A stretch of DNA of 15,305 bases from Candidatus Hodarchaeota archaeon (GTDB taxonomy: Archaea; Asgardarchaeota; Heimdallarchaeia; Hodarchaeales; Hodarchaeaceae). Below the pieces are notes generated by a model. It made no database searches. It was given only the letters and a program-made list of their open reading frames with translations, and was not told the origin of the DNA. Below are positions 2,633-14,969 of this stretch, piece after piece. The first letter of the stretch is position 1, and each line of letters opens with the position of its first letter. The stretch covers positions 1 to 15,305 of the forward strand of contig JAEOTQ010000144.1 of the NCBI GenBank assembly GCA_016839785.1, given 5' to 3'. A program made the translations under genes and the position numbers.

Positions 2633-4372
2633 ATGAGTAGTCCTACGTCCCCATCTGATGAAACCATAATTACTAAGATAAAGGCAAATCGATTAGACCA
2701 AATAATCCAGATTCTTGAAATTTCATTTATCTTTATGATTTGTTATTCAATCATCACACTAGTAGATGCGGCCTTTTTGGAATTGAACTTATATAATCCC
2801 TTGGGAGATTTCTTGGGGGATGAAGGTATTGGGAATTTAAATGGTGGACATTTTGAAGAAATTGTTCGAGTTACCCTGATTTTTAATCTTCTACTGTTTT
2901 CTGTAAGTCTAATATTCGGTCTGTGGATGCGACGTGCACGAGATGGATGGTCATTCAGCCAATTAGGATACACCTTAAAAACACCCAATTACTCTTTTGG
3001 TTCCCTTGTCCGACGTGGATTGCTTTTAGGTTTCATTGTAATTCTCGTATGGTATACTCTTGTCACTTTTGTACAATTTTTGCTGATTGGTGATTTACAA
3101 GAAGCTATTTTCATGCATCATTCTTTTCAAAGCAATGGGACTCTTCTTGATTCTCACCAGTTGCTAGCAGAATATTATTTTGGATTCATAGAGATGGGGT
3201 TCATTTGGCCATTATCTGCTGGGTTTTTCTTCTTCGCTTATGTTCATAATTCGTTGAAAGCACGGTTTCCTTTTGGGATAGCGAACCTTCTAGCCACATT
3301 TTTCTACGTTACTTACCTGGCCTTTTTCTTTATGATCCCGTCAAGAGGGAAGTTCGATTTCATTATTCCAGCCATTAAAGATCCAATGTTTTGGGCCATG
3401 CTCATGAGTTTTGCAGTGGTCCTCTATATCTCATTCAGTGCTTTTGCTGAAACAGGATCGGTGGTCCTACCATTTTTATTAAACTTTGTTTTGAATGTAG
3501 GTTTAACATTATTTAAATCAATAAATTCACTTCTTTTCAACTCAAGTCCAGAATTAGATTATTTTTGGATGATTATTCCATATCTAGTAGTATTGACAAT
3601 TATTGTGATATGGTATTTTCTAAAACGAGAGGATTTTTCGACATTACGTCTCGGATTAGGTCATATTCGTGAAATATTTACAAAAAAATCTCGAAATGAA
3701 GTTTCATTGCGCGCAGCACTAGGAATATTTGGTTTATTCTTTACTCTCTCATTTATAGTCCCTGGTTTTATCGAATACATTGTTTCGAAAAGAATTGGCC
3801 AACCAGATCTATTTTCTACGGAACTGGTAAGTCTAGTCTATGCTTTAACGTATGTGGTTATTATTGGGCTAGCAATTATTGTTCTTACGTATGAGCCAAC
3901 AGAAGTTTTCGATGTACTATTGGTAAAAATGCCTGATGGGATTCCAATTGCACAGAGGCTTAAGCTTTTCCAATCAGATGAAGTATTAATCTCGGGTTTT
4001 TTCACAGCGATTTCTAGTGTGTCAAAGGAATTGGATGAAGACGAAAAAGCTGATCTTCGATCAATTAAAAGGGGAGAGCGGGAAATCATTCTTGAAGATG
4101 GAGTATTCACCAGAATTATTGCTTTAGTAGATCGAGATCAAAATCGCATCCGTCAAATGATGCAGGATATGCTGCGTAAATTTGAATCTGCTAATTCCAC
4201 AGCCCTAGCAAATTGGATAGGTGATGTTAATGCGATTCCAGAGGCAAAAACTCTTGTAAAAGAGATGGGTAGACTTTCAATTCGGTTTGATATACCAAAT
4301 CAAACACGCCTGATAGGTGTACTGACAGTATTACTTACTCCCCTTATGATTACGCTTATCGGTTTTATCTAA
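2633..4372 (+). CDS. Polytopic membrane protein: degenerate CPBP/Abi-like N-terminal region, longin/roadblock-like domain and terminal TM helix
   Basis: About 10-11 hydrophobic segments precede a soluble stretch VFDVLLVKMPDGIPI...DEVLISGFFTAISSVSKEL...LRSIKRGEREIILE...KFE...LANWIGDV, which matches the pattern of Asgard longin-like domains. A final hydrophobic helix follows. AAGGAG SD-like motif upstream. Confidence 0.75.
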   Translation: MSSPTSPSDETIITKIKANRLDQIIQILEISFIFMICYSIITLVDAAFLELNLYNPLGDFLGDEGIGNLNGGHFEEIVRVTLIFNLLLFSVSLIFGLWMRRARDGWSFSQLGYTLKTPNYSFGSLVRRGLLLGFIVILVWYTLVTFVQFLLIGDLQEAIFMHHSFQSNGTLLDSHQLLAEYYFGFIEMGFIWPLSAGFFFFAYVHNSLKARFPFGIANLLATFFYVTYLAFFFMIPSRGKFDFIIPAIKDPMFWAMLMSFAVVLYISFSAFAETGSVVLPFLLNFVLNVGLTLFKSINSLLFNSSPELDYFWMIIPYLVVLTIIVIWYFLKREDFSTLRLGLGHIREIFTKKSRNEVSLRAALGIFGLFFTLSFIVPGFIEYIVSKRIGQPDLFSTELVSLVYALTYVVIIGLAIIVLTYEPTEVFDVLLVKMPDGIPIAQRLKLFQSDEVLISGFFTAISSVSKELDEDEKADLRSIKRGEREIILEDGVFTRIIALVDRDQNRIRQMMQDMLRKFESANSTALANWIGDVNAIPEAKTLVKEMGRLSIRFDIPNQTRLIGVLTVLLTPLMITLIGFI

Positions 4373-4403: not shown

Positions 4404-5066
4404 TTATCGATTCAATATGCGAACCCATTCATAAACAGGTTCACATAACTTTTCTATTCGTTCTTTCTCTGCATTCATTGGTGAAGGTGACCATTCTGGA
4501 TCAGGTTCAAACCAAAAGTCGATAATATTCCCAACTCGGTCTTCTTCATTAGCAAATTTTACCACGACTGGCATATTGGTTTCAGTATGCCAAGGTTTGT
4601 CAATTTTTAGAATATTTGCGATAGCTGTTTTACTTTCCCCAACAAGAACATAGGCTAGGACGAATGGTAATTTCTTCAAGGCACTTTTTGCTGCAAAGCC
4701 ACAAATGGTAAAAGTATGAAGAATACCAGTCATGGGCATTTCTACCCAGTCAGTAATTTCTAATTTGCAATCAAGATTCCAACAGTTTACACGGGGAGGA
4801 AAAGTGACATCTCCACACTTTGGGCATTTCGTCCCCATTAGCTTCCCATTCATTAAACCCTTGGCATACGGACTCAAGGCTCCTAGACGAAAGGTGTACA
4901 GCATATCATAATAAATCTGTTGTTCTACCCAATCTGATCCATCCGCTGCTGATCCTGCACGGAAGTTTTGCCAGACCCATCCTTTTTCAGGTATTAATTT
5001 ACTTAGCTTTTTCCAGTCTTCCCAATCGAAGTCGTTATTATTTGGTGTTGGATGAAGTTTTGTCAT
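4404..5066 (-). CDS. Zn-ribbon/OB-fold protein (DUF35/ChsH2-C family), thiolase partner
   Basis: GKLMGTKCPKCGDVTFPPRVNC zinc ribbon, followed by an OB-fold pattern (WVEMPMTGILHTFT...LPFVLAYVLV...MPVVVKF). It starts 12 bp after the thiolase stop, with a GAGGTG SD overlapping that stop. Confidence 0.92.
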   Translation of the reverse strand: MTKLHPTPNNNDFDWEDWKKLSKLIPEKGWVWQNFRAGSAADGSDWVEQQIYYDMLYTFRLGALSPYAKGLMNGKLMGTKCPKCGDVTFPPRVNCWNLDCKLEITDWVEMPMTGILHTFTICGFAAKSALKKLPFVLAYVLVGESKTAIANILKIDKPWHTETNMPVVVKFANEEDRVGNIIDFWFEPDPEWSPSPMNAEKERIEKLCEPVYEWVRILNR

Positions 5067-5078
5067 TTCTTTTGCACC

Positions 5079-6347
5079 TCACACTCTCTTTAATATGAAA
5101 TTGCTAATAGAAGTCCCTGTACCAGCATGAGAATTCACTAGTCCAACTTCAGCATCCTTGACTTCATTATCAGTGCTTTTATGTTCTCGTGGGACTAATC
5201 CAGTGAGTTGATAATAGCACTCTATAGCAGACATAAGACCTGTTGCGCCAACAGGATGTCCATATCCTATTAATCCTCCACCGGGATTAGTAGGGATTTC
5301 TCCGTCCATCATGGGCATTTTATCCCGTATGAACTGTTTTGGGGTTGTAGATTCACACCAACCAAGTGCATTATAAATCTGAAATTCTGACGTACTAAAT
5401 GCATCATGGACCTCTGCAACATCGATTTGTTTATGCGAATCTTTCCAGTTTATTCCCGCCATTTTATAAGCCACTTCAGCTGAATGACGACACGCAGCAA
5501 ATTCCCCAAGCCCCGGATACCCCTCTCCATATCGCTCGGTCCAACCAGGAAATGCGTAGCGATCACCAGCTCGAATAGTGCATGAAGAGAGGCCAGCCCC
5601 TGTAATTTCGACATAATGATCAGGGGAATATTGTTTCGCGTATTTCTCATTGGTTACAAGAATAGTAGCAGCTCCTTCAGACATAAAACAACAATCCCAT
5701 TTCTTTAAAGGATAGGATATTAAGCGACTGCCCATTACATCATCGACTGTTAATTTTTTACCAACCTTACGATAATGCTGGGCTTTCTCACCTGTTGCTA
5801 TGGCGTTATTCTTATTTTTGACTGCAATCTCAGCAAAATCTTCTTCTGTTAGACCGTATTCTTCCATGAAAATACGTGCTAATCCAGCATAATAGTTAGT
5901 ATAGTTTGCTCCCAGCATAGCTTCATATCTGGTATCTGATGCGATAGCAATAAACTCAGATCCCTTACTCTGAGAAACAGATCCCATCAATTCATATCCG
6001 ATAACTGGGACAACATCAGCTAACCCTGCTCTAACTAGTGCATAGGCCGCATAAAGGGCGCTTCCCCCTGTATTACCTCCGTTGTCAATTCTGAAGTGGG
6101 GTACTCCAACTAAACCGAGGTGATCGTGTAGAATCCAGTAAGAAGTCAATTGATGAGCAAAATGGACACTAAAATGACTATAAACAACCATTCCATCCTC
6201 TCTCACATCCTTCAGATGAAAATTTGGAATATCATCATATAATTGACGAATTGTATTGGCAACAAGCTCCTCAATCTGTAGGTTTACTGGATAATCAAAA
6301 GGAGTGGTCGTACCTCCTGCAATGAATACTTGTTGTTGTTCAGGCAT
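5079..6347 (-). CDS. Thiolase-superfamily protein (SCP2-thiolase/Ltp-like) lacking the catalytic cysteines
   Basis: Motifs AEIAVKNKNNA, DCCFMSEGAA, DVAEVHDAFS, PTNPGGGLIGYGHPVGATG. The start is placed at ATG 6347 (MPEQQQVFIAGG) because an AGAGGA SD lies just upstream and the longer extension is AT-rich promoter-like sequence. Confidence 0.92.
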   Translation of the reverse strand: MPEQQQVFIAGGTTTPFDYPVNLQIEELVANTIRQLYDDIPNFHLKDVREDGMVVYSHFSVHFAHQLTSYWILHDHLGLVGVPHFRIDNGGNTGGSALYAAYALVRAGLADVVPVIGYELMGSVSQSKGSEFIAIASDTRYEAMLGANYTNYYAGLARIFMEEYGLTEEDFAEIAVKNKNNAIATGEKAQHYRKVGKKLTVDDVMGSRLISYPLKKWDCCFMSEGAATILVTNEKYAKQYSPDHYVEITGAGLSSCTIRAGDRYAFPGWTERYGEGYPGLGEFAACRHSAEVAYKMAGINWKDSHKQIDVAEVHDAFSTSEFQIYNALGWCESTTPKQFIRDKMPMMDGEIPTNPGGGLIGYGHPVGATGLMSAIECYYQLTGLVPREHKSTDNEVKDAEVGLVNSHAGTGTSISNFILKRV

Positions 6348-6365
6348 AGTTAATCCTCTATAATT

Positions 6366-6378
6366 CTCTTTATAATAC
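6366..6378 (-). promoter_or_regulatory. Candidate TATA box for the thiolase-DUF35 operon
   Basis: Minus strand reads TTATAAAAG about 25 nt upstream of ATG 6347. Confidence 0.35.
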
Positions 6379-6407
6379 CTCACAAAATTTCTTTTACGAG
6401 TTTTCAC

Positions 6408-6426
6408 AAGTAATTAGTAATTACTT
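6408..6426. promoter_or_regulatory. Inverted repeat, candidate transcription-factor operator in the divergent promoter region
   Basis: Perfect AAGTAATT-N3-AATTACTT between the divergent thiolase and glycerol kinase genes. Confidence 0.4.
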
Positions 6427-6576
6427 TCCATTCGCTGACAAAAATCATGATTGGTCGAAAACCACATTTTTACAAGTGACACTCCTTAAAAAAGCCTCCC
6501 TAAAGGTAATCACAGCTTAAAGTACTTCGTATCTCGTTCGTTGTAGGCTGAATTTTACAGACTAACACTTCTCTAG

Positions 6577-8121
6577 GTGAGTTTATTGAGTTACATCTTA
6601 GCCATAGATTCAGGTTCCACAGGAATCCGTGCTGTAGTATTTGACAAACAAGGTCAAATACTCGCCAAAGAATATCAAAAGACGCTTCCACTTACACCTC
6701 ATCCCAGGTGGGTGGAATATGATCCTGAAGAACTGTGGAATTCTTTATTGGAAGTTGTAACAAAAGTTTTTGCTACTTCCTCAATTTCTCCACAAGAAGT
6801 TGTAGCATTAGGAATTTGTAATCAACGTGCCACCTTTTGTTTATGGGAACGAGAGACAGGCAAGCCTATTACAAATTTTATTAGCTGGGCTGACACACGT
6901 AGTATATCAACAGTTGAAAAAATGAATAAAAACTGGAAATGGAGACTACTACGAAAATTTGCATGGATAGGAAGGGTTTTTGGTAATACAATGATGACTG
7001 CCACGACTATGTTACAATTCAATACCGATCATACCACTTCCCGGTTAAAATGGGTGCTAGATAATGAGGATGGCTTACGTAAACGATGCAGAAATGGTGA
7101 GATCATCTATGGAACTATCGATTCCTGGTTTGTTTACAAACTGACAGGAGGACAAATGCATGTAACTGACTTCAGTAACGCTGCCACTGGCCTTCTAAAC
7201 CCCTTTCAGTTAGTATGGAATCAGTATATACTTAGAATATTCGATATTCCTCAACAAATGTTCCCAGAAATAAAAGAGACTACCTCTACTTTTGGTACGA
7301 CTGATCCTTCACTGTTTCAAGGTGTGTCAATACCAATTGCTGCTGTAGCTGGAGATCAACAAGCGGCTCTTTTTGGACAGTGCTGCTTCAATCCAGGAGA
7401 TGTGAAAATCAGTCAGGGGAGTGGTGCATTTGTCGATATGCTTGTAGGTGATAAGGGACAACTTTCTAAACGTGGGTTATTGCCTTTAGTGGCTTGGGTG
7501 ATTGATGAACAACCAATGTATCTTTTAGAAGGCTACGTTGCCACAGCTGGCACATTAATCGATTGGTTAGGGGAAGGTATAGGATTGAGCGATACTCCGA
7601 AAATATTAAACGAGTTTGCAGCAAAATGTGATGATACTGAAGGAGTGATATTCATCCCTACCCCCTCTGGTATCCGATTTCCTTATTTTTCGGCTCATTC
7701 ACGAGCTACGATTATGGGGCTTTCATTGAATACCCATCGGGCGCATGTAGCTAGAGCAGTCTTTGAAGGGATAGCAATGAGAATTGTAGATATCCTTGAA
7801 GGCGTGGAACAAGATACAAAGATAGTAATCAAGTCTTTAAAAACTGATGGGGGGGTATCACAGTCAGATATACTATTACAACTTTTAGCTGACTTCGCCA
7901 ACTTGGAAGTACAACGTGCTCCAGAAGCAGATATGACTGCCACAGGGATTGCCTACTTAGCAGGTTTAAGTGTGGGTTTCTGGAAAGATCAGGATGAGTT
8001 ATCTCAATTATATCTGCGAAGTGAACCTACAATCTTCACACCAAATCTTGATTCAGGAAAAAGGGAGGAAAAGCGGAAAAAATGGAAAAAAGCTCTTCAG
8101 GCACTACTTTCAATAGGATAG
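6577..8121 (+). CDS. glpK: FGGY-family carbohydrate kinase, glycerol kinase (GK5-like)
   Basis: Motifs ILAIDSGSTGIRA, WVEYDP, GICNQRATF, GTIDSW, TDFSNA, GDQQAALFGQ, DGGVSQSD, AYLAGLSVGFW. The true start may be TTG 6586 (AGGTGA SD at 6575-6580) rather than GTG 6577. Confidence 0.9.
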   Translation: MSLLSYILAIDSGSTGIRAVVFDKQGQILAKEYQKTLPLTPHPRWVEYDPEELWNSLLEVVTKVFATSSISPQEVVALGICNQRATFCLWERETGKPITNFISWADTRSISTVEKMNKNWKWRLLRKFAWIGRVFGNTMMTATTMLQFNTDHTTSRLKWVLDNEDGLRKRCRNGEIIYGTIDSWFVYKLTGGQMHVTDFSNAATGLLNPFQLVWNQYILRIFDIPQQMFPEIKETTSTFGTTDPSLFQGVSIPIAAVAGDQQAALFGQCCFNPGDVKISQGSGAFVDMLVGDKGQLSKRGLLPLVAWVIDEQPMYLLEGYVATAGTLIDWLGEGIGLSDTPKILNEFAAKCDDTEGVIFIPTPSGIRFPYFSAHSRATIMGLSLNTHRAHVARAVFEGIAMRIVDILEGVEQDTKIVIKSLKTDGGVSQSDILLQLLADFANLEVQRAPEADMTATGIAYLAGLSVGFWKDQDELSQLYLRSEPTIFTPNLDSGKREEKRKKWKKALQALLSIG

Positions 8122-8227
8122 ATAGTAAACACCTATATTAAACGATCAATAATTCCGTGAGAAAAATACATTTGAGGAAGAAAAATCTCATCAAATACTG
8201 TATTTATTATCTTGATTCTCCCATAAT

Positions 8228-9181
8228 ATGATCATTGGAGAGACAGACTTGAGTATGACACAATTTAAGGCGATAATTGATCTTTTACGTTTTACACTTG
8301 GAATCTTAAGTAGTTTTGCCGTCCTCTCTGCTGGTTTTATTGTGTACGTCCTTGAGGGGAATAGTCCCGACTTTGTTTCATTCTTTTTTGAGAATGGAGT
8401 TCTGGAATGGCCAGGGATATTATTAGGTCTGTTTGCAACTATGCTCCTAACTTGGGGGAATCAAGCAGTAAACGATCTTTTTGATGTAGAAACAGATATT
8501 GCAAATCAACGCTTTGATCGTCCTTTGGCTCGGGGGGATCTTTCACATAATTTTGTAAAGATTCTGACCTTTCTGCTATTCTCAACGGCTGTGATCATAA
8601 TAGGTGGTCTTGTACTAGTGTATAAAGTTACTATTGCCCTATTTATATTTACTCTATTATTTGTAATAATTGGAGTAGGATATAATTTCGGTGTTAAACA
8701 ACTAGGATTTATTGGTAATATCTGGGTGGCTATAGGATATGTAGCACCGTTGTTTATAGGGTTCTTTATGCTAAGTCCCCAAGAAGCCTTAACTATCATG
8801 GCCTGTGCAATCATCTTGAACTCTACTTTCTTCATGAGTGTTGGTCGGGAAGTTATCAAAGATATTCAGGATTATGAGGGAGATAAACAACAGCATCTCA
8901 ATTCATTAGCAGTAAAATACGGGCCCAAAAATGCGAGTATTGTTGCAACTATCTTTTTTCTTATTACTATTTTATCCTCTCTTGTTGCAGGTATATTCGT
9001 GTACAAAAATCTGGTGTTTTGGGTTTTTGATGCTGGTTTTGCACTAATCCTTTTATTAACGAGTTATACCATTTTTGTAGAAAAGACTCAAGGTGGGAAG
9101 AAAGCACGAAAATATACACGTTGGTCATTATGGGTAGCCTTAGGCGCTTTTTTCTTTGGGATATTCTTTATTCCAACATAA
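8228..9181 (+). CDS. UbiA-family prenyltransferase, geranylgeranylglycerol-phosphate geranylgeranyltransferase (DGGGP synthase)-like
   Basis: First Asp-rich motif NQAVNDLFDVETD..N...RPLARG and second motif REVIKDIQDYEGD are typical of the DGGGPS subfamily. About 8-9 TM segments. Alternative start at ATG 8255. Confidence 0.88.
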   Translation: MIIGETDLSMTQFKAIIDLLRFTLGILSSFAVLSAGFIVYVLEGNSPDFVSFFFENGVLEWPGILLGLFATMLLTWGNQAVNDLFDVETDIANQRFDRPLARGDLSHNFVKILTFLLFSTAVIIIGGLVLVYKVTIALFIFTLLFVIIGVGYNFGVKQLGFIGNIWVAIGYVAPLFIGFFMLSPQEALTIMACAIILNSTFFMSVGREVIKDIQDYEGDKQQHLNSLAVKYGPKNASIVATIFFLITILSSLVAGIFVYKNLVFWVFDAGFALILLLTSYTIFVEKTQGGKKARKYTRWSLWVALGAFFFGIFFIPT

Positions 9182-9199: not shown

Positions 9200-10582
9200 A
9201 TGGAACATTCAACAGAAAATACAACAACAGATAAATCGAAAATTCAGCTAAAAGATATTCTCTATGTTTTCGCAGTTCTTTTAATATTAGTATCATGCTT
9301 TGATTTATTAGGAACGATTTTCGCTCTTGGTATTACTTTTGGGAGTTTTACTGCTCTCATCCCACCGATAGGGGAGAATGAAACGATATACAATTTATTC
9401 CTGAATTTTGGTGCTCAAGTAGGAGCAATAATTGGATTTCTAATTTTATACAAATTGAGAAAAATCGAGCCAGAAGAGAAAAAGAATCCTAAGGGTCCCT
9501 TTATTCAAATCACATATGTGTTGCATGCCCTAGATTTAATTTTCATCCTAACTGTTGTATTAGCTGTTACCTATATCTTGGAAGAAATATTAGATGTCTC
9601 AACTACAGCTCCGACTTCGATAGAACCAACCCTAGCTTCATTAGGGGATCCCCTATTCTTTATACTTTTCTTTGGCGTTTTAGCGGTAGGTGCTCCAATC
9701 TGGGAAGAATTAGTTTTTAGACGCACATTAATACCAATGTTTGAGAGAAGAGGTTTTGGTCAAGCTTGGGCATTATTATTTACAAGTTTAATGTTCTCAT
9801 TACGGCATACGCCTACTGATCTATTTGAAGGGTCTCTAGGTTTTGCAATCTCTCATTTCTTTAGCACACTCATTGGAGGTTTAATGTTAGGGTTTTTGTA
9901 TCTGAGAACTAGAAACATATTTTGGCCAATATTACTGCACAGCATTACTAATTCCTTTTATGGACTTGCTCAAATTGCTAATACTGAGCTTGAAGCAGGA
10001 TTAGATATCTCAATGGCAATGATTGCTTCTTCTTATTGGCTTTTGATTGCAATAGGTGTTGGAGCTGTAGCAACGCTCTATTTTGGGGTGCAATTGGTGT
10101 TTAGAGGAAGAAGGCAATTCAAACCGATTTGGTTGCAGATAATTACAGAAACCAAGAACAGAACTAGCTCAATTCTTACTTTTTCTCTCTTGGTTATTGG
10201 TTTTATTCTCTTTTCAGGAGCTGTACCGATTTTTTTCGATTATGTTGCAGATTTAATGAATCCTACATCTGAATCTGGGGTATATTTAGTTTATATGTTT
10301 CAGATTTTCTTTTTTGCGATAGTAGTGGGCATTCTGGGACTTTTCATATTTAGAAAAGCTCAACCATTTACGAAACCGATCTTTGTCTCAACAAAGGTAG
10401 TAGATCCAACGGCCCAGATATTTATTCGTAAACCAGATTTCATTCCAACGGTTATTCCTGCTGATAGCGCACGATGCGTGTCTTGCGGTAATACTATATT
10501 ACCTAATGCAAAGTTTTGTGCTTTTTGTGGATCGGACCTCAGTATCGAAAGTGATGATCCAGATAAATGGGAAAAAATCTAA
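9200..10582 (+). CDS. CPBP/Abi (Rce1-like, type II CAAX) intramembrane glutamic protease with a C-terminal zinc ribbon
   Basis: Intact motifs APIWEELVFRR (EExxxR), FSLRH (FxxxH) and ILLHSITN (HxxxN). C-terminal CVSCG...AKFCAFCG zinc ribbon. GAGGT SD. Confidence 0.92.
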   Translation: MEHSTENTTTDKSKIQLKDILYVFAVLLILVSCFDLLGTIFALGITFGSFTALIPPIGENETIYNLFLNFGAQVGAIIGFLILYKLRKIEPEEKKNPKGPFIQITYVLHALDLIFILTVVLAVTYILEEILDVSTTAPTSIEPTLASLGDPLFFILFFGVLAVGAPIWEELVFRRTLIPMFERRGFGQAWALLFTSLMFSLRHTPTDLFEGSLGFAISHFFSTLIGGLMLGFLYLRTRNIFWPILLHSITNSFYGLAQIANTELEAGLDISMAMIASSYWLLIAIGVGAVATLYFGVQLVFRGRRQFKPIWLQIITETKNRTSSILTFSLLVIGFILFSGAVPIFFDYVADLMNPTSESGVYLVYMFQIFFFAIVVGILGLFIFRKAQPFTKPIFVSTKVVDPTAQIFIRKPDFIPTVIPADSARCVSCGNTILPNAKFCAFCGSDLSIESDDPDKWEKI

Positions 10583-10632: not shown

Positions 10633-11946
10633 ATGAGAATAATTGGAAATAAGGGTATTGGGGAGCGATTACTTCCATTAAAATACCCTAATTTTGGAAA
10701 GCTGTTTATAGGTCAATTTATTTCCAATATTGGTTCTCAATTTTCATATATGGCACTCCAATTTCTTATTTTTGATTTAACGGGCGATTTAGTAATGATG
10801 GCTGTACTTGCTATCACGGAAGCCGTACCAATGATACTTATTGGACCCTTTGCTGGAGTAATGATAGATAGATATAATAGAAAATACATAATGGCAATAG
10901 CAAATGGACTTCAAGCAGTTGTGATACTTTTGATCCCAATTACATCTGTTTTTACGGGGAGTACTCGGATTGGAGCAATTTTAATCCTTGCATTCTTGAA
11001 TTCTGCTTTTGCTCGTTTCTTTTTTCCCGCTAGAGGAGCCTCTATTCCTAAATTAATCGAAAACAAAGATGATCTCTTTGGTGCCAATTCGCTTAGTGCA
11101 GGTGCTTACCAAACTTCAGCCCTTATTGGGCCCATGTTTGCAGGTATAATAATCGGATTATATGGCTATCAAATTCCCTTTGTTATTGATAGTTTTACCT
11201 TTATTTTCTCTTCACTATGCATTTTATGGATTTCTGTTCCATTAAAAGTGACTGAGCGTTCTAAACAAGGGCCGATTCAAGATTTAGTTGATGGAGCAAG
11301 ATACATCCGAGGGTTTCTCCCAATTTTATACCTCTTAGTTATTTTTTCGGTTTTAATGTTTGCAGGAGGTGCAACACTCTTCCTTATTGTTCCATTTCTG
11401 GAAATTGAATTTGGTTTAGCTTCTAGGGGGCCACGAGAATTCGTTTTTGGACTATTCTCTGCATTATCGGCGGGGGTGGGTATGCTGTTTGCAGTCTATT
11501 TATCGAGAAAAAAACAGCTACGAAGACCTATCACATTGATTACGTATTCTTTAGTTATAGCTGGAATTATGTTATTTGGATTTGGCATTGCTACTGAACT
11601 TTGGATGTTGGCACTCGCGTGGATCGGTTTTGGGACAATAGAAGTTGCTGTTGGCATACCCTTACAAACTATTGCTCAAGAAACAGTACCTGATAAATTA
11701 AGGGGAAAAGTATTCTCTTTTATTAATTTAGCAATTACTTTTTCACAGATAATTGGAATGGGATTTGTGAGCTTCTTGGCTGCAAGTCCTCTTGCATTAC
11801 GGGGAACATTTGCTGCAAGTGGACTTTTTATGGTACTTTTTGCATGTCTTGGGTTCCTCTTCATGAGAAGAAAGAAATTAGAAAGCATTGCGTTACAAAA
11901 ACGAGAAGAATTCCGTCAAAGGACAGGAGATCCTATTCCACCGTAG
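10633..11946 (+). CDS. MFS transporter (DHA3/MefA/EntS-like)
   Basis: About 12 TM segments, motif A GPFAGVMIDRYNRK, N-terminal FGKLFIGQFISNIGS and C-terminal QETVPDKLRGKVFS. GGAG SD. Confidence 0.93.
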   Translation: MRIIGNKGIGERLLPLKYPNFGKLFIGQFISNIGSQFSYMALQFLIFDLTGDLVMMAVLAITEAVPMILIGPFAGVMIDRYNRKYIMAIANGLQAVVILLIPITSVFTGSTRIGAILILAFLNSAFARFFFPARGASIPKLIENKDDLFGANSLSAGAYQTSALIGPMFAGIIIGLYGYQIPFVIDSFTFIFSSLCILWISVPLKVTERSKQGPIQDLVDGARYIRGFLPILYLLVIFSVLMFAGGATLFLIVPFLEIEFGLASRGPREFVFGLFSALSAGVGMLFAVYLSRKKQLRRPITLITYSLVIAGIMLFGFGIATELWMLALAWIGFGTIEVAVGIPLQTIAQETVPDKLRGKVFSFINLAITFSQIIGMGFVSFLAASPLALRGTFAASGLFMVLFACLGFLFMRRKKLESIALQKREEFRQRTGDPIPP

Positions 11947-13483
11947 AAGCATCAGTCAGCTTGGCATATTCTTTGACTTTGCCCTCTTCACTCGTCCCCT
12001 GTAAAACAAGGACATATTCAATACATCCTCTGGCCCGTTCTCTCCGTTGTGTCATATCATCGAGATTGCTAGTGATGTCTAAGTGAATAACAACATCTGC
12101 TTCCTCTAAGTTTAATCCCCTTCCACCAACAGGTGTGAATATCAGGACGTTAACATCTTCTTTCCGAAATTGATCTAGAATAATATGTCTAGATTCCTCT
12201 TTTGTCTTTCCAGAAAGGTATTTAACTCCTGGATATTGCAGAGTTTCTAATAGCATTTTCAATTGCTCACCCAAGGCGAGATACCGTGTAAATAAGAGTA
12301 CTTTTGCCCCTCGAATGATATGTTCATGAATAATGTTTATAGCTTTCTCAACTTTTGGATGAATCAATCCTCGAGTAGTTACCTCTTCAGGCTTATCATA
12401 ACGTGGTAGATCAACCCGATAAGAAATGATTTCTGAACTGACCTCTAAGAGAGATTGAAAGACTTCTTTGTTCTCATCTTTCTTGGTATATTTAAGATAT
12501 TCTCCTGGAGTGCTTTCAAGAAGTAGTAACCGCGCGTGCGTCAACTTAAAAAGTAAAGCAAAAGCGTTTATTAGTTGAATACGGTCATCATTCTTGGTGA
12601 CACGGTATTTACCAAGTTTAATTGGATATGCAACTTGTTCACCTCGTAATCGATCAAGAGCTCCTCCATATGACAGTTTAACAATTTCTAACCGACTTAA
12701 ATTAGGATCGAGGATTTCTTGAATGGTACCAACAGGCTTGGTCAGTAAATTTGAAATAGTTTGATCATTGTGAATATAATCTTCCCGATTAATTGGTTTA
12801 ATTTGGGTAATAGTTTCATAAGGGGATAAATCTAAACGAGACATTTGGTGGGCATCTTCCCCTAGAACCTGCATGATAAATTTAGCTTTATGTTGATCTC
12901 TTGTTCCAGACATGGCAAGAATAGGAAAATTGTTGCTTTTCCTCACCTGGAATAATTCTTGAAAATATTTAGATAAACGAAAACCCGACATCGAGCGTGC
13001 AAGGAGATCGGTAGCTTCATCAACAATACAAAGGGACATATTCTTGAAAATATCAACTTTCATCCGAGATTTGATCTGAAATCGATCATTCATAAGAGTT
13101 TGAATTGGGGAAAAGATGACATTCGATGCCTGGTACATTTTCATTTTTTGCGAGAGATTCAGGCCTTTTCCTCCCGTTTGAGGGTTAAAAAGATAACCTA
13201 GCTTATCTACAAAGCCAAATTCTTTTCCCATTTCCACAGCTTGGCGACAGCGCATACCAGCAGCTTCGCGTGCGGAAGTGAAAATGAACTGCTTTTTTGG
13301 TTCATCCAACTTTAGCCTTAACAGCACGAGAAGAGCAATAATAGTTTTTCCTGTCCCATAGGGGTAGTTTAACAAGATGGAATGTGAATCCTTGTGATGC
13401 GTGAGAATTTCTTGTACTGCCTGTAATTGATAATCTCGTTTGTCAATGGTCAATCCTTGAAGAAAGCTATTCAGTTTCTCCAT
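11933..13483 (-). CDS. SF2 DExD/H-box helicase, Hef/FANCM(Mph1)-like, with divergent motifs and no nuclease domain
   Basis: Q motif RDYQ, motif I YPYGTGKT, II IVDEAT, III MSGT, a helical insertion, HPK...KVLLFTRY (IV), TPVGGRGLNL (V) and QRRERAR (VI). The 3' end overlaps the MFS gene by 14 bp. Confidence 0.85.
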   Translation of the reverse strand: MEKLNSFLQGLTIDKRDYQLQAVQEILTHHKDSHSILLNYPYGTGKTIIALLVLLRLKLDEPKKQFIFTSAREAAGMRCRQAVEMGKEFGFVDKLGYLFNPQTGGKGLNLSQKMKMYQASNVIFSPIQTLMNDRFQIKSRMKVDIFKNMSLCIVDEATDLLARSMSGFRLSKYFQELFQVRKSNNFPILAMSGTRDQHKAKFIMQVLGEDAHQMSRLDLSPYETITQIKPINREDYIHNDQTISNLLTKPVGTIQEILDPNLSRLEIVKLSYGGALDRLRGEQVAYPIKLGKYRVTKNDDRIQLINAFALLFKLTHARLLLLESTPGEYLKYTKKDENKEVFQSLLEVSSEIISYRVDLPRYDKPEEVTTRGLIHPKVEKAINIIHEHIIRGAKVLLFTRYLALGEQLKMLLETLQYPGVKYLSGKTKEESRHIILDQFRKEDVNVLIFTPVGGRGLNLEEADVVIHLDITSNLDDMTQRRERARGCIEYVLVLQGTSEEGKVKEYAKLTDASTVE

Positions 13484-13517
13484 AACCGATCAAGCTCAAG
13501 GGTGTTAGGGGAGTCAC

Positions 13518-13526
13518 CTTTAAAAG
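13518..13526. promoter_or_regulatory. Candidate bidirectional TATA box
   Basis: CTTTAAAAG, with palindromic core TTTAAA at 13519-13524, sits at the centre of the 78-bp gap between the divergent ATGs at 13483 and 13562. Confidence 0.45.
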
Positions 13527-13561
13527 TACTTCAGTTACGATCTGATTTCGGATGGTATATT

Positions 13562-14062
13562 ATGGAGGAACTAATTGTTGCGATGCAAAAACGTCGTAAA
13601 GGTATTGTTTATTTACTGAAAATGATTCCCCTTGATATTTGGGACTGGAAACCTGGTTCAGGAATGAGAACTACCGCTGATTTAGCCAATCATTTGGCCT
13701 CAAGTCCATTAATGCTTCTTGAATTATTTAAAGGTGAACTGAAATCAGGAGAAGATTTTGCTGAACTCGAAAAGCAAAATTTTCCTATCAATGCCCAAGG
13801 ATTAGTGAAACTGTACGACGAGGGCCTTAAAAAGCTAATTACATATCTCGAGGACCATTTGGAAGGAGCACGAGAGAAAAATGTGAAGTTCTTTTATCAG
13901 GAAGAAAAGTCTTCATTGTACCATGAAATATTTGAAGAAATTGGTCATGAATGGTTTCATTCAGGGCAGTTGTTCACGTATTTAAGAATCAACAACGTTA
14001 CAGTAGATATGGGAGCCTATTATGGTTACAAGGATCCTGATGAAAGTATTCCGCCAAATTAG
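13562..14062 (+). CDS. DinB/YfiT-family four-helix metalloprotein
   Basis: WDWKPGSGMRTTADLANHLA and HEWFHSGQLFTYLR supply the family's His triad. The start is moved to ATG 13562 because the longer ORF overlaps the helicase head-to-head. Confidence 0.88.
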   Translation: MEELIVAMQKRRKGIVYLLKMIPLDIWDWKPGSGMRTTADLANHLASSPLMLLELFKGELKSGEDFAELEKQNFPINAQGLVKLYDEGLKKLITYLEDHLEGAREKNVKFFYQEEKSSLYHEIFEEIGHEWFHSGQLFTYLRINNVTVDMGAYYGYKDPDESIPPN

Positions 14063-14066
14063 ACTG

Positions 14067-14969
14067 CTAAGTAACTGTCTGGTCAATTGATAGGGGGAAT
14101 ACAATATTGAAGGTTGATTGAGTTAGCCAACAGCGGAGATTAAAATACGCTGCGATGTACTGAAAATAGTGGTTAATTAGGCGATAACTTTGTAACGAGG
14201 ACAAATAGTGATCATATGGAATACAGAAACTAAGTTTGGTCGAAACACGGTTTAACTGCTCTAATTCTATGGTCACAGGTTCTGTCTCAAACCATGTGAG
14301 AGTGGTAATGCAAAAATTTGCTAGGAAATGTTCACTTCCATATATCACAGGATTTGAGTTAAAATACGGCTCTTGGTATCCATCACCTGCTTGAACATGA
14401 AATCGGACTCTGGAAGGATCAGGAGAAGATCCCCAACTTTTTGAAATGACTCCTGATAATGTTGCGGGAGATAAAGGAGGAGGAGCACTTAAGAGCTGTA
14501 TAAAATCAGATGCAATAAGAGTACTCATTTTTTGTCGATGTGAGGCAGATCTAAGGGTTTCAAAAAGATAAGGAAGCGAGGAATTCGACGTTTCTTGTAT
14601 CAATCTTGTGCCAAGTCCCATGATTAGACTCGCAGTCCGGAGTTCATGGATAAGATCTTCAACCCACATTTGTTGATAGGGTAAAGGAACAGTTGTCGTT
14701 TTATTACAGGAATATACGTCATAAATTAAATGGGAATCTTCCATAAGATTGAAACTAACATCGTGAGTATTAAGCTGGGATAGGCGAGGGAATGACTGAG
14801 AAGGGTTAAGACCACTTATTTCCGCAAAAGATTGCGTGTAATAAAGGATTACATCGTCATCTGTGATGATATACGATTGAAAAGGATTAGTAAAGACTTT
14901 TTCAGTAGTGGATTGTTGATGAATTATAATCATCCCCTGGTTTTCTTGGTTTGGATTGGGTAATCTCAT
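14067..14969 (-). CDS. Hypothetical protein, degenerate PAS plus histidine-kinase-like
   Basis: SYIITDDDVILYYTQSFAEISGL resembles the start of a PAS domain and EDLIHELRT resembles a HisKA H-box. No recognisable N, G1 or G2 boxes. Confidence 0.6.
   Translation of the reverse strand: MRLPNPNQENQGMIIIHQQSTTEKVFTNPFQSYIITDDDVILYYTQSFAEISGLNPSQSFPRLSQLNTHDVSFNLMEDSHLIYDVYSCNKTTTVPLPYQQMWVEDLIHELRTASLIMGLGTRLIQETSNSSLPYLFETLRSASHRQKMSTLIASDFIQLLSAPPPLSPATLSGVISKSWGSSPDPSRVRFHVQAGDGYQEPYFNSNPVIYGSEHFLANFCITTLTWFETEPVTIELEQLNRVSTKLSFCIPYDHYLSSLQSYRLINHYFQYIAAYFNLRCWLTQSTFNIVFPLSIDQTVT

Follow-up and report, generated by a model that had tools for sequence, protein, structure and literature searches.

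The kinase gene and its domain structure

The window analysed here is a stretch of 15,305 nucleotides from contig JAEOTQ010000144.1 of a Candidatus Hodarchaeota archaeon. On its forward strand it contains a gene for a kinase of the FGGY family, which is related to canonical glycerol kinase (GlpK) and is near certain to be of the type of animal glycerol kinase 5 (GK5). An initial annotation, made from the sequence alone, had placed such a gene here, and one intact open reading frame (ORF) spans exactly the coordinates that it gave (Table 1). Both FGGY domains were detected by Pfam with scores above the cut-offs (PF00370, 192.5 bits with a cut-off of 28.8; PF02782, 106.8 bits with a cut-off of 27). 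The best NCBIfam models for the ORF are the two GlpK models, but each scores below its curated cut-off (TIGR01311, 478.6 against 590.35; NF000756, 478.2 against 498), and the third-ranked model is xylulokinase with 176 bits. By sequence, the closest solved structure is Enterococcus GlpK (3d7e; E 5.7e-115 in a HMMER alignment), and the identity to solved GlpKs is 35–38%. An AlphaFold2 (AF2) model built on 28 members of the clade had a predicted local distance difference test score (pLDDT) of 89.2 and a predicted template modelling score (pTM) of 0.90, and a Foldseek search against the PDB returned GlpK structures only (template modelling scores of 0.82–0.89).

The motifs quoted in the initial annotation were located in the translation where it had placed them: QRATF at residues 83–87, NFISWADTR at 100–108, CCFNPGDVK at 269–277 and the insertion motif NKNWKWRLLRKFAWIGRVFG at 117–136 (nucleotides 6925–6984). 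The GlpK motifs that it had described as missing were likewise absent, as DPYFS, NTYGTG, QRETT and NAIVWQ were not found in the translated window protein. The changes in GlpK-like motifs recur through a family of hundreds of proteins and are thus not a product of chance. In a metatranscriptome run, short contigs match positions 6400–6572 and 6831–7054 with six differences each, and a 34-base part of another contig matches 7913–7946, after which that contig continues unlike the window. A contig from a second run matches 8141–8300, and both runs contain 6% of the sampled words. These contigs come from a relative and speak neither for nor against transcription of the gene.

Table 1. Coordinates of the kinase gene, of its domains and key residues, and of neighbouring genes in the window
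Feature	Position	Strand	Basis or remark
GK5-type FGGY kinase gene	6577..8121	+	514 aa, GTG start, stop included; ORF list, Pfam FGGY_N and FGGY_C, placement in GK5-type clade
FGGY_N domain, residues 6–267	6592..7377	+	PF00370, E 1.2e-56
FGGY_C domain, residues 277–464	7405..7968	+	PF02782, E 1.6e-30
Arg84-Ala85, aligned to GlpK Arg83-Glu84 (Glu lost)	6826..6831	+	3d7e alignment
Trp104 of W-x-D-x-R, aligned to GlpK Trp103	6886..6888	+	Invariant in clade
16-residue insertion relative to GlpK, residues 118–133, core of cationic amphipathic helix	6928..6975	+	Unmatched in 3d7e alignment
Asp151-His152, aligned to GlpK Tyr135-Phe136 (substrate Tyr lost)	7027..7032	+	3d7e alignment and column counts
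Asp260, aligned to GlpK Asp245 (retained)	7354..7356	+	3d7e alignment; invariant in clade
Phe285, aligned to GlpK Phe270 (retained)	7429..7431	+	3d7e alignment; invariant in clade
Thiolase, divergently transcribed neighbour	5079..6407	-	Pfam thiolase domains; context only
DUF35/ChsH2-type zinc-ribbon and OB protein, thiolase partner	4404..5066	-	Context only
UbiA-family prenyltransferase, downstream neighbour	8228..9181	+	PF01040; context only
CPBP/Rce1-like intramembrane protease with C-terminal zinc ribbon	9200..10582	+	Context only

Phylogenetic placement and distribution

The placement of the kinase was analysed in three trees, namely two quick trees of 86 rows and of 71 rows (the latter with named taxa and without the insertion columns) and a careful maximum-likelihood tree of 51 rows (485 columns without the insertion, LG+C20+F+G4 with posterior mean site frequencies, PMSF). 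The rows were picked by hand from the hits for length (440–640 aa) and diversity, and most of the approximately 270 full-length sequences are not in the careful tree. The topology was identical in all three trees. In the careful tree, canonical GlpK forms a clade (100/100) that excludes the window protein, which lies instead in a GK5-type superclade of 38 rows together with the named animal GK5 proteins (100/98; 94 in the quick tree of 71 rows and 93 in that of 86 rows). The superclade splits into a eukaryotic half of 15 rows (94/83) and a prokaryotic half of 23 rows (97/88), and the latter comprises two subclades, both supported by 100/100: the window's, with 20 rows, and a second one. Within the window's subclade, the spirochaete sequences are basal or unresolved, and the Asgard sequences form at least three groups that are intermixed with Leptospira. 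The gene tree shows exchange between Asgard archaea and Spirochaetota. The xylulokinase-like paralogue of the window's genome is the outgroup of the 86-row tree, on a very long branch. The proposal of the initial annotation that the protein is a member of the GK5 clade outside GlpK is upheld by this topology, and nesting within canonical GlpK, the outcome that it had named as contrary to its proposal, occurred in none of the three trees. The family assignment is right, and it is already reflected in database names. Two further GlpK-like groups without characterised members (P0124, P0169, P0213 and P0270; P0142, P0146, P0188 and P0196) are placed between the GK5 type and GlpK; one of them has a segment of 39–43 residues at the same insertion point, and the other has no insertion and also lacks Glu84.

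Of 7998 candidates scored in a word-indexed search, 2560 proteins reached E ≤ 1e-10. The best 120 of the 2560 are headed by Asgard proteins, with 72% identity for Hodarchaeales and 54–68% for entries labelled Thor-, Hermod-, Odin-, Heimdall-, Sigyn- and Lokiarchaeota, and Leptospira and other Spirochaetota come next among the matches listed (55–58%). Many of these listed relatives carry the NCBI or UniRef name 'glycerol kinase 5'. When representatives at 50% identity were searched exhaustively, a Spirochaetota 'glycerol kinase 5' came first (54% identity, 600.6 bits), and the next full-length matches did not exceed 41%. The insertion-bearing representatives at 32–38% identity included GK5 of Styela, Leptinotarsa, Brevipalpus and Phlebotomus as well as proteins from Chromosphaera (Ichthyosporea) and Arcella (Amoebozoa). 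When Styela GK5 was used as the query of a reciprocal search, the named entries among the 120 matches listed were all animal, and all function names were glycerol kinase 5.

At the level of genomes, a scan of species representatives with the clade alignment found at least 30 loci with at least 48% identity, of which at least 10 were archaeal (Asgard-labelled or 'uncultured archaeon') and at least 20 were from Spirochaetota; the next locus listed, at 38%, was GlpK. A locus search with the single window protein returned canonical GlpK loci only (30–41% identity). Among 201 sampled genomes of the window's phylum, seven, including the window's own, carry a copy with at least 57% identity, and these copies include those of three of nine congeners and of all three genomes of one other family. 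Many more of the 201 genomes gave GlpK-like matches only (31–38%), and since these metagenome-assembled genomes (MAGs) are incomplete, a copy that was not found is not necessarily absent. The second subclade ('ASG2', P0406 and relatives) is sister to the window's subclade, and a sample of 40 genomes from one Asgard family contained eight full-length proteins and one partial protein of this kind. Judged by identity (56–60%), some proteins labelled Spirochaetales belong to it as well. Its proteins resemble the window protein in TQRASF, W-Q-D-K-R, the 33-residue segment, T-D-H and QCCF, but their identity to it is 39–42%. Both GK5-type subclades are common to Asgard archaea and spirochaetes.

The likeness to animal GK5 had been put forward in the initial annotation, and it holds for the named proteins of Styela, Suncus, Rana, Leptinotarsa and others, which have QR[S/G/A][T/S]F, W-x-D-x-R, a 33-residue segment in place of the 17 residues of GlpK, and Q/N-H in place of Y-F. 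Eukaryotic GK5 is the sister clade of the prokaryotic copies, has an insertion of equal length in the same place, has likewise lost GlpK Glu84 and Tyr135, and carries QCCF as well as His or Gln where GlpK has Phe136; in both groups, the inserted segment combines positive charge with amphipathic character. However, its identity to the window protein is only ∼36%, the Tyr135 position is Asp in the prokaryotic copies and Gln or Asn in eukaryotic GK5, and the phosphate-2 motif of the prokaryotic copies reads SQGSG rather than T[ML]GTG.

The initial annotation had also seen in this gene a connection between Asgard archaea and eukaryotes, with the proviso that this would fall if the protein grouped with bacterial homologues. 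The connection is weakened on that count, as Spirochaetota share the clade, with Leptospira at 55–58% identity. It is weakened further by the careful tree, in which eukaryotic GK5 branches as the sister of the prokaryotic copies as a whole and not from within the Asgard ones. Constraining the 15 eukaryote-type rows to group with seven Heimdall-group rows, a group named after the tree had been made, was rejected (ΔlnL 182.8; p-AU 2.7e-58 in the approximately unbiased test). No signal that specifically links Asgard archaea to eukaryotes is seen in the gene tree, and the gene carries less weight for eukaryote origins than had been hoped.

Substrate pocket

The residues that determine the specificity of GlpK are described in Zhang et al. 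2011 (PMC3245297): Arg83, Glu84, Tyr135 and Asp245 make hydrogen-bond contacts to glycerol, and Phe270 packs on it. According to the same text, these five signature residues are identical in all GlpK clusters, and FGGY subfamilies change their substrate through a few residues of the pocket. In the window protein, the corresponding residues are Arg84, Ala85, Asp151, Asp260 and Phe285, so that three of the five are kept and the complete GlpK signature is absent. Two of the four residues that bind glycerol through hydrogen bonds are replaced (Glu84 by Ala85 and Tyr135 by Asp151).

These replacements extend to the whole group, as was apparent from a comparison of alignment columns in 12 canonical, 32 prokaryotic GK5-type and 18 eukaryote-type rows. 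The Glu84 column contains Glu in all 12 canonical rows and Ala, Gly or Ser in GK5-type rows. At 16 positions, a residue that is near-invariant in canonical GlpK (at least 11 of the 12 rows) is found in at most 10–15% of the GK5-type rows. Column 85 (E to A/G/S) is one of them, and others are 151 (Y to D/Q/N), 152 (F to H/Q), 203 (R to A/S) and 303–304 (TT to PL). The window protein has the pocket characteristic of the GK5 type, with a small residue in place of Glu84 and D/Q/N-H/Q in place of Tyr135-Phe136.

Positions D11, G13, R84, W104, D260, Q261, G281, G283, F285 and D424–G426 are invariant in the 28 aligned clade members, and W104, D106 and R108 of the W-x-D-x-R motif are unchanged in all of them. 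The window protein also keeps the glycine motifs of FGGY nucleotide binding. Because the catalytic and nucleotide-binding positions are invariant while GlpK signature positions are replaced, the window protein has, judging from its sequence, the appearance of a working kinase whose substrate site has been remodelled. It shares with canonical GlpK (TIGR01311; 3d7e, 3h3n and 1bo5) the two-domain FGGY fold, the equivalents of Arg83, Asp245, Phe270 and Trp103, and the nucleotide-binding motifs. However, it differs in the loss of the Glu84 and Tyr135 equivalents, in the presence of the 16-residue helix, in its position in a separate clade, and in scores below the GlpK cut-offs.

Inserted amphipathic helix

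The segment that contains the insertion comprises 32–33 residues in the GK5 type, as opposed to 15–20 residues in canonical rows. AF2 predicts helices at residues 110–117, 120–133 and 138–145 (block pLDDT 96, 94, 87 and 89). Residues 123–136 have the highest helical hydrophobic moment of the protein (0.71, rank 1 of 501 segments of 14 residues). Helix 120–133 has a net charge of +5 and three tryptophans, and the net charge of the insertion is +5 to +6. The inserted segment has the top-ranked moment in 19 of 31 prokaryotic rows and is among the ten highest in 12 of 19 eukaryote-type rows, and all 54 rows with the insertion have a positive net charge there. The basic, aromatic and amphipathic insertion described in the initial annotation is thus recovered by both the moment and the charge, and the modelling that it had called for gives a predicted helix whose cationic amphipathic character is conserved. 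In terms of sequence, these properties fit an interfacial helix. Since the insertion is situated between the pocket residues Trp104 and Asp151, an effect on substrate access is plausible.

Coexistence with canonical glycerol kinase

The genome from which the window derives (84.5% complete) also encodes a canonical GlpK, which scores above the cut-off (714.8 bits) and has QRETT, NAIVWQ, TYFS and NTYGTG. Because both genes are present in the same genome, the window gene is a distinct second paralogue and not a duplicate of GlpK. Three congeners with a GK5-type gene also show a second, GlpK-like match, and both types occur in Leptospira interrogans and a Spirochaetales MAG, where GlpK scores 668 and 728 bits and the GK5 type 446 and 456 bits. 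No match above the GlpK cut-off was obtained in three complete genomes, those of Promethearchaeum syntrophicum MK-D1, Lokiarchaeum ossiferum and Harpocratesius. Besides the GK5 type, the sole GlpK-like gene of MK-D1 and of L. ossiferum encodes a divergent FGGY protein with the full R-E-Y-D-F signature (NQRET, DPYFS, GDQQ and GTGSF), and this divergent gene may be the real glycerol kinase of Lokiarchaeia. The divergent proteins (L145:4935-6479 and L146:4935-6479) score 348–354 bits and are ∼32–34% identical to GlpK of the window's genome. In each genome checked for a second copy, the GK5-type gene is accompanied by a GlpK-like gene that bears the signature.

According to Manoharan et al. 2019, Loki- and Thorarchaeota have several glpK homologues, most of which are not bona fide glycerol kinases. 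Among the articles listed in literature searches on GK5, archaea including Asgard archaea, Leptospira and the FGGY family, we found no treatment of prokaryotic GK5-type proteins. The prokaryotic GK5-type group may already be visible in Supplementary Figure S8 of PMC6737245, which presents the phylogeny of glpK in Loki- and Thorarchaeota.

Gene neighbourhoods

The most informative neighbourhoods are those of non-Leptospira spirochaetes, in which a PF01553 acyltransferase on the same strand adjoins the kinase in 7 of 13 sampled loci. Its best NCBIfam model is 1-acylglycerol-3-phosphate O-acyltransferase (76.6 bits, against a cut-off of 102.95). Three spirochaete loci contain a lipid kinase of the YegS/Rv2252/BmrU family (YegS/DgkB type; TIGR00147, 144.1 bits, above the cut-off of 118.65), and three contain a HAD-IB hydrolase as a neighbour. 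In one locus (L073:4075-7258), there is a 4-bp overlap between the genes of the lipid kinase and the acyltransferase, and the start of the FGGY kinase gene follows after another 5 bp. The Spirochaetaceae cluster looks like a small phospholipid-related operon that has apparently not been described. The loci in which the kinase is packed against the acyltransferase are L073, L076, L077, L078, L080, L084 and L087, all from Spirochaetaceae. In the window's genome, PF01553 has four matches (C8:23177-23575, C8:10484-10876, C60:16927-17337 and C76:9122-9511), and the same search gave no PF01553 match in any of four control archaea. The genome also has one match to a GlpD/GlpA-type C-terminal domain, three to Fe-ADH_2 (glycerol-1-phosphate dehydrogenase-like) and one to PcrB (geranylgeranylglyceryl phosphate synthase-like).

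The second Asgard subclade has a gene order of its own, composed of a GlcD-like FAD oxidase, a CCG iron–sulfur protein, the kinase and an alpha/beta hydrolase, in all three loci viewed, one of which was scanned with Pfam. The genes of this cluster are tightly packed on the same strand (L138:4208-9545, L139 and L140).

In the window, the kinase gene is flanked by the divergent thiolase gene and its DUF35 partner on one side and by the UbiA gene on the other. The thiolase and DUF35 genes are syntenic in four close relatives (L058, L059, L141 and L143), and a UbiA gene is also found downstream of the kinase in L058, L059, L142 and L141, the last of which is identical with locus L075. In the four relatives with this UbiA gene, a gene of 702–770 aa is located between it and the kinase gene. 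The 770-aa gene (L058:8546-10858) is an N6 DNA methylase of the Eco57I/TaqI_C type according to Pfam. The window has only a 106-bp spacer at this place (8122–8227), which reflects an insertion or deletion difference within the group. Next after UbiA, in four relatives as in the window, comes a gene for a CPBP/Rce1-like protease. The UbiA ORF scored below all NCBIfam cut-offs (best model NF009523, 149.5 bits with a cut-off of 269), and the genome has 13 UbiA matches in all. A link to ether lipids through UbiA as digeranylgeranylglyceryl-phosphate synthase was considered and rejected, since the gene is one of 13 in the genome, scores below the cut-off and adjoins the kinase in close relatives only, with the methylase gene in between.

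Proposed function and alternative explanations

We tentatively favour a reading in which the window gene encodes an active GK5-type kinase that acts on glycerol or a glycerol-bearing molecule near a lipid surface and serves glycerolipid metabolism; as a whole it is tenable, with somewhat more doubt than confidence attached. The enzyme would use ATP to phosphorylate a primary hydroxyl group on glycerol or on a molecule that contains it, and this substrate would be held unlike glycerol in GlpK, and the inserted helix would position or gate the active site at the lipid surface. Its role would lie in the synthesis or turnover of glycerolipids instead of the catabolism of glycerol, possibly by supplying glycerol phosphate or a lyso-lipid phosphate that is then completed by acyl- or prenyl-transferases. 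Glycerolipid metabolism is suggested by the conserved cationic amphipathic helix together with the acyltransferase and YegS-type neighbours in Spirochaetaceae. The part of this reading that places the protein at a membrane surface, in a lipid-linked role, is tentative and leans towards doubt.

Several observations weigh against this assignment. The strongest contextual signal points to phospholipid metabolism, but it is bacterial, and the neighbourhoods are not conserved across lineages. The association with thiolase and UbiA genes is synteny among a few close relatives, where an extra gene parts the kinase from UbiA, and the Lokiarchaeia loci that were examined show no lipid genes and no shared neighbours. 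In Leptospira, nothing but an alpha/beta hydrolase gene recurs, at a distance of one or two genes downstream (4 of 7 loci), and in the second Asgard subclade, the kinase lies beside the FAD oxidase and iron–sulfur protein genes. The pLDDT values of 94–96 in the modelled insertion would suit a helix that packs against the rest of the protein equally as well as one that anchors it in a membrane. Animal GK5 is reportedly a true glycerol kinase (EC 2.7.1.30), in UniProt and according to Zhang et al. 2017. Finally, a 2025–26 preprint assigns the animal 1-O-alkylglycerol kinase to ACAD10, an unrelated kinase.

The protein could instead be an ordinary second isozyme of glycerol kinase that turns free glycerol into sn-glycerol 3-phosphate and differs from GlpK in regulation, oligomerisation or localisation, with the insertion as a regulatory or oligomer-interface element. 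This explanation is possible but doubtful. It would agree with the GlpK fold and ∼37% identity to solved GlpKs, with the retention of the Asp245, Arg83, Phe270 and Trp103 equivalents, and with the database names 'glycerol kinase' and 'glycerol kinase 5'; moreover, Asp151 could restore the carboxylate that was lost with Glu84. However, an isozyme would have to bind glycerol with two of its four hydrogen-bonding residues replaced, in a signature given as identical across GlpK clusters in PMC3245297. It would also have to coexist with a signature-bearing GlpK-like gene in every genome checked for a second FGGY copy, and it scores below the curated GlpK cut-offs. A kinase of a soluble polyol, ketose or hydroxy acid, with lipid genes as coincidental neighbours, is decidedly unlikely. 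The operon of the second Asgard subclade (3 of 3 loci), which suggests the oxidation of a small hydroxy compound, would be in line with it, as would the differences in neighbourhood between lineages and the ease with which FGGY subfamilies switch substrate by a few pocket residues (PMC3245297). Such a kinase is less compatible with the position of the clade next to GlpK-like groups, the xylulokinase-like paralogue being on a very long outgroup branch, and with a score of only 176 bits for the xylulokinase model. The conserved cationic amphipathic helix would have no obvious role for a soluble sugar, and the recurrent adjacency of acyltransferase and lipid-kinase genes in Spirochaetaceae would be left to chance.

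A loss of catalysis, with the protein retained for binding or regulation as an echo of the reported binding of SREBP by animal GK5, is very improbable. It takes its appeal from the animal protein, which is reported to regulate SREBP processing and to affect lipid and sterol homeostasis in the skin. However, all catalytic and nucleotide-binding positions that were checked are invariant in 28 members, and 54–72% identity across Asgard archaea and Spirochaetota fits an enzyme. No SREBP is known from prokaryotes, and the role of mouse GK5 in its processing is therefore not expected in them.

Two narrower candidates were considered and set aside. That the GK5 type is the orphan 1-O-alkylglycerol kinase of animals is unlikely for animals, since the preprint assigns this activity to ACAD10. 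An archaeal kinase that forms glycerol 1-phosphate is also unlikely, as Spirochaetota have members of the same subclade with an identical pocket, and eukaryotes have the sister clade. The resemblance to the YegS/DgkB and ACAD10 glycerolipid kinases would lie in function only, with a glycerol hydroxyl being phosphorylated at the surface of a membrane, and the folds are unrelated.

The broader relevance of the kinase comes from animal GK5. In a review, mouse GK5 is presented as a kinase of the sebaceous gland with a regulatory role in cholesterol biosynthesis, and a 2026 mouse preprint calls Gk5 minimally characterised in systemic metabolism and puts it forward, as one of several genes at the locus, as a candidate for a hotspot of quantitative trait loci (QTL) for serum lipids. 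The pocket changes and the amphipathic helix are common to animal GK5 and a compact prokaryotic clade, which in spirochaetes is linked to phospholipid genes. The prokaryotic orthologues, simple, intron-free and with operon clues, therefore offer a means to test the substrate of the whole subfamily. An extension of the glycerolipid reading to the entire family, in which the GK5 types would be an old membrane-surface family with a lipid-linked or substituted glycerol as substrate and the helix as anchor, and in which eukaryotic GK5 would descend from the same prokaryotic stock, is unlikely. For example, a monoradylglycerol would be converted into a lyso-phosphatidate-like product and completed by PlsC-type or prenyl-transferases. 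Were this true, the spirochaete operons and the easily expressed archaeal and bacterial orthologues would reveal the real function of animal GK5. The functional ideas, all of them tentative, gain modest new support here.

Other genes of the window

Among the remaining ORFs, 2633–4372 (+, 579 aa) and 14067–14969 (-, 300 aa) gave no Pfam match at E ≤ 0.001. Judged by eye, the 579-aa ORF is hydrophobic and apparently encodes a multi-pass membrane protein. A helicase ORF (11933–13483, -) overlaps the end of an MFS transporter ORF (10633–11946, +) by 14 bp. It also overlaps the listed TTG start of a DinB-family ORF (13427–14062, +) by 57 bp, so the true DinB start is probably further downstream.

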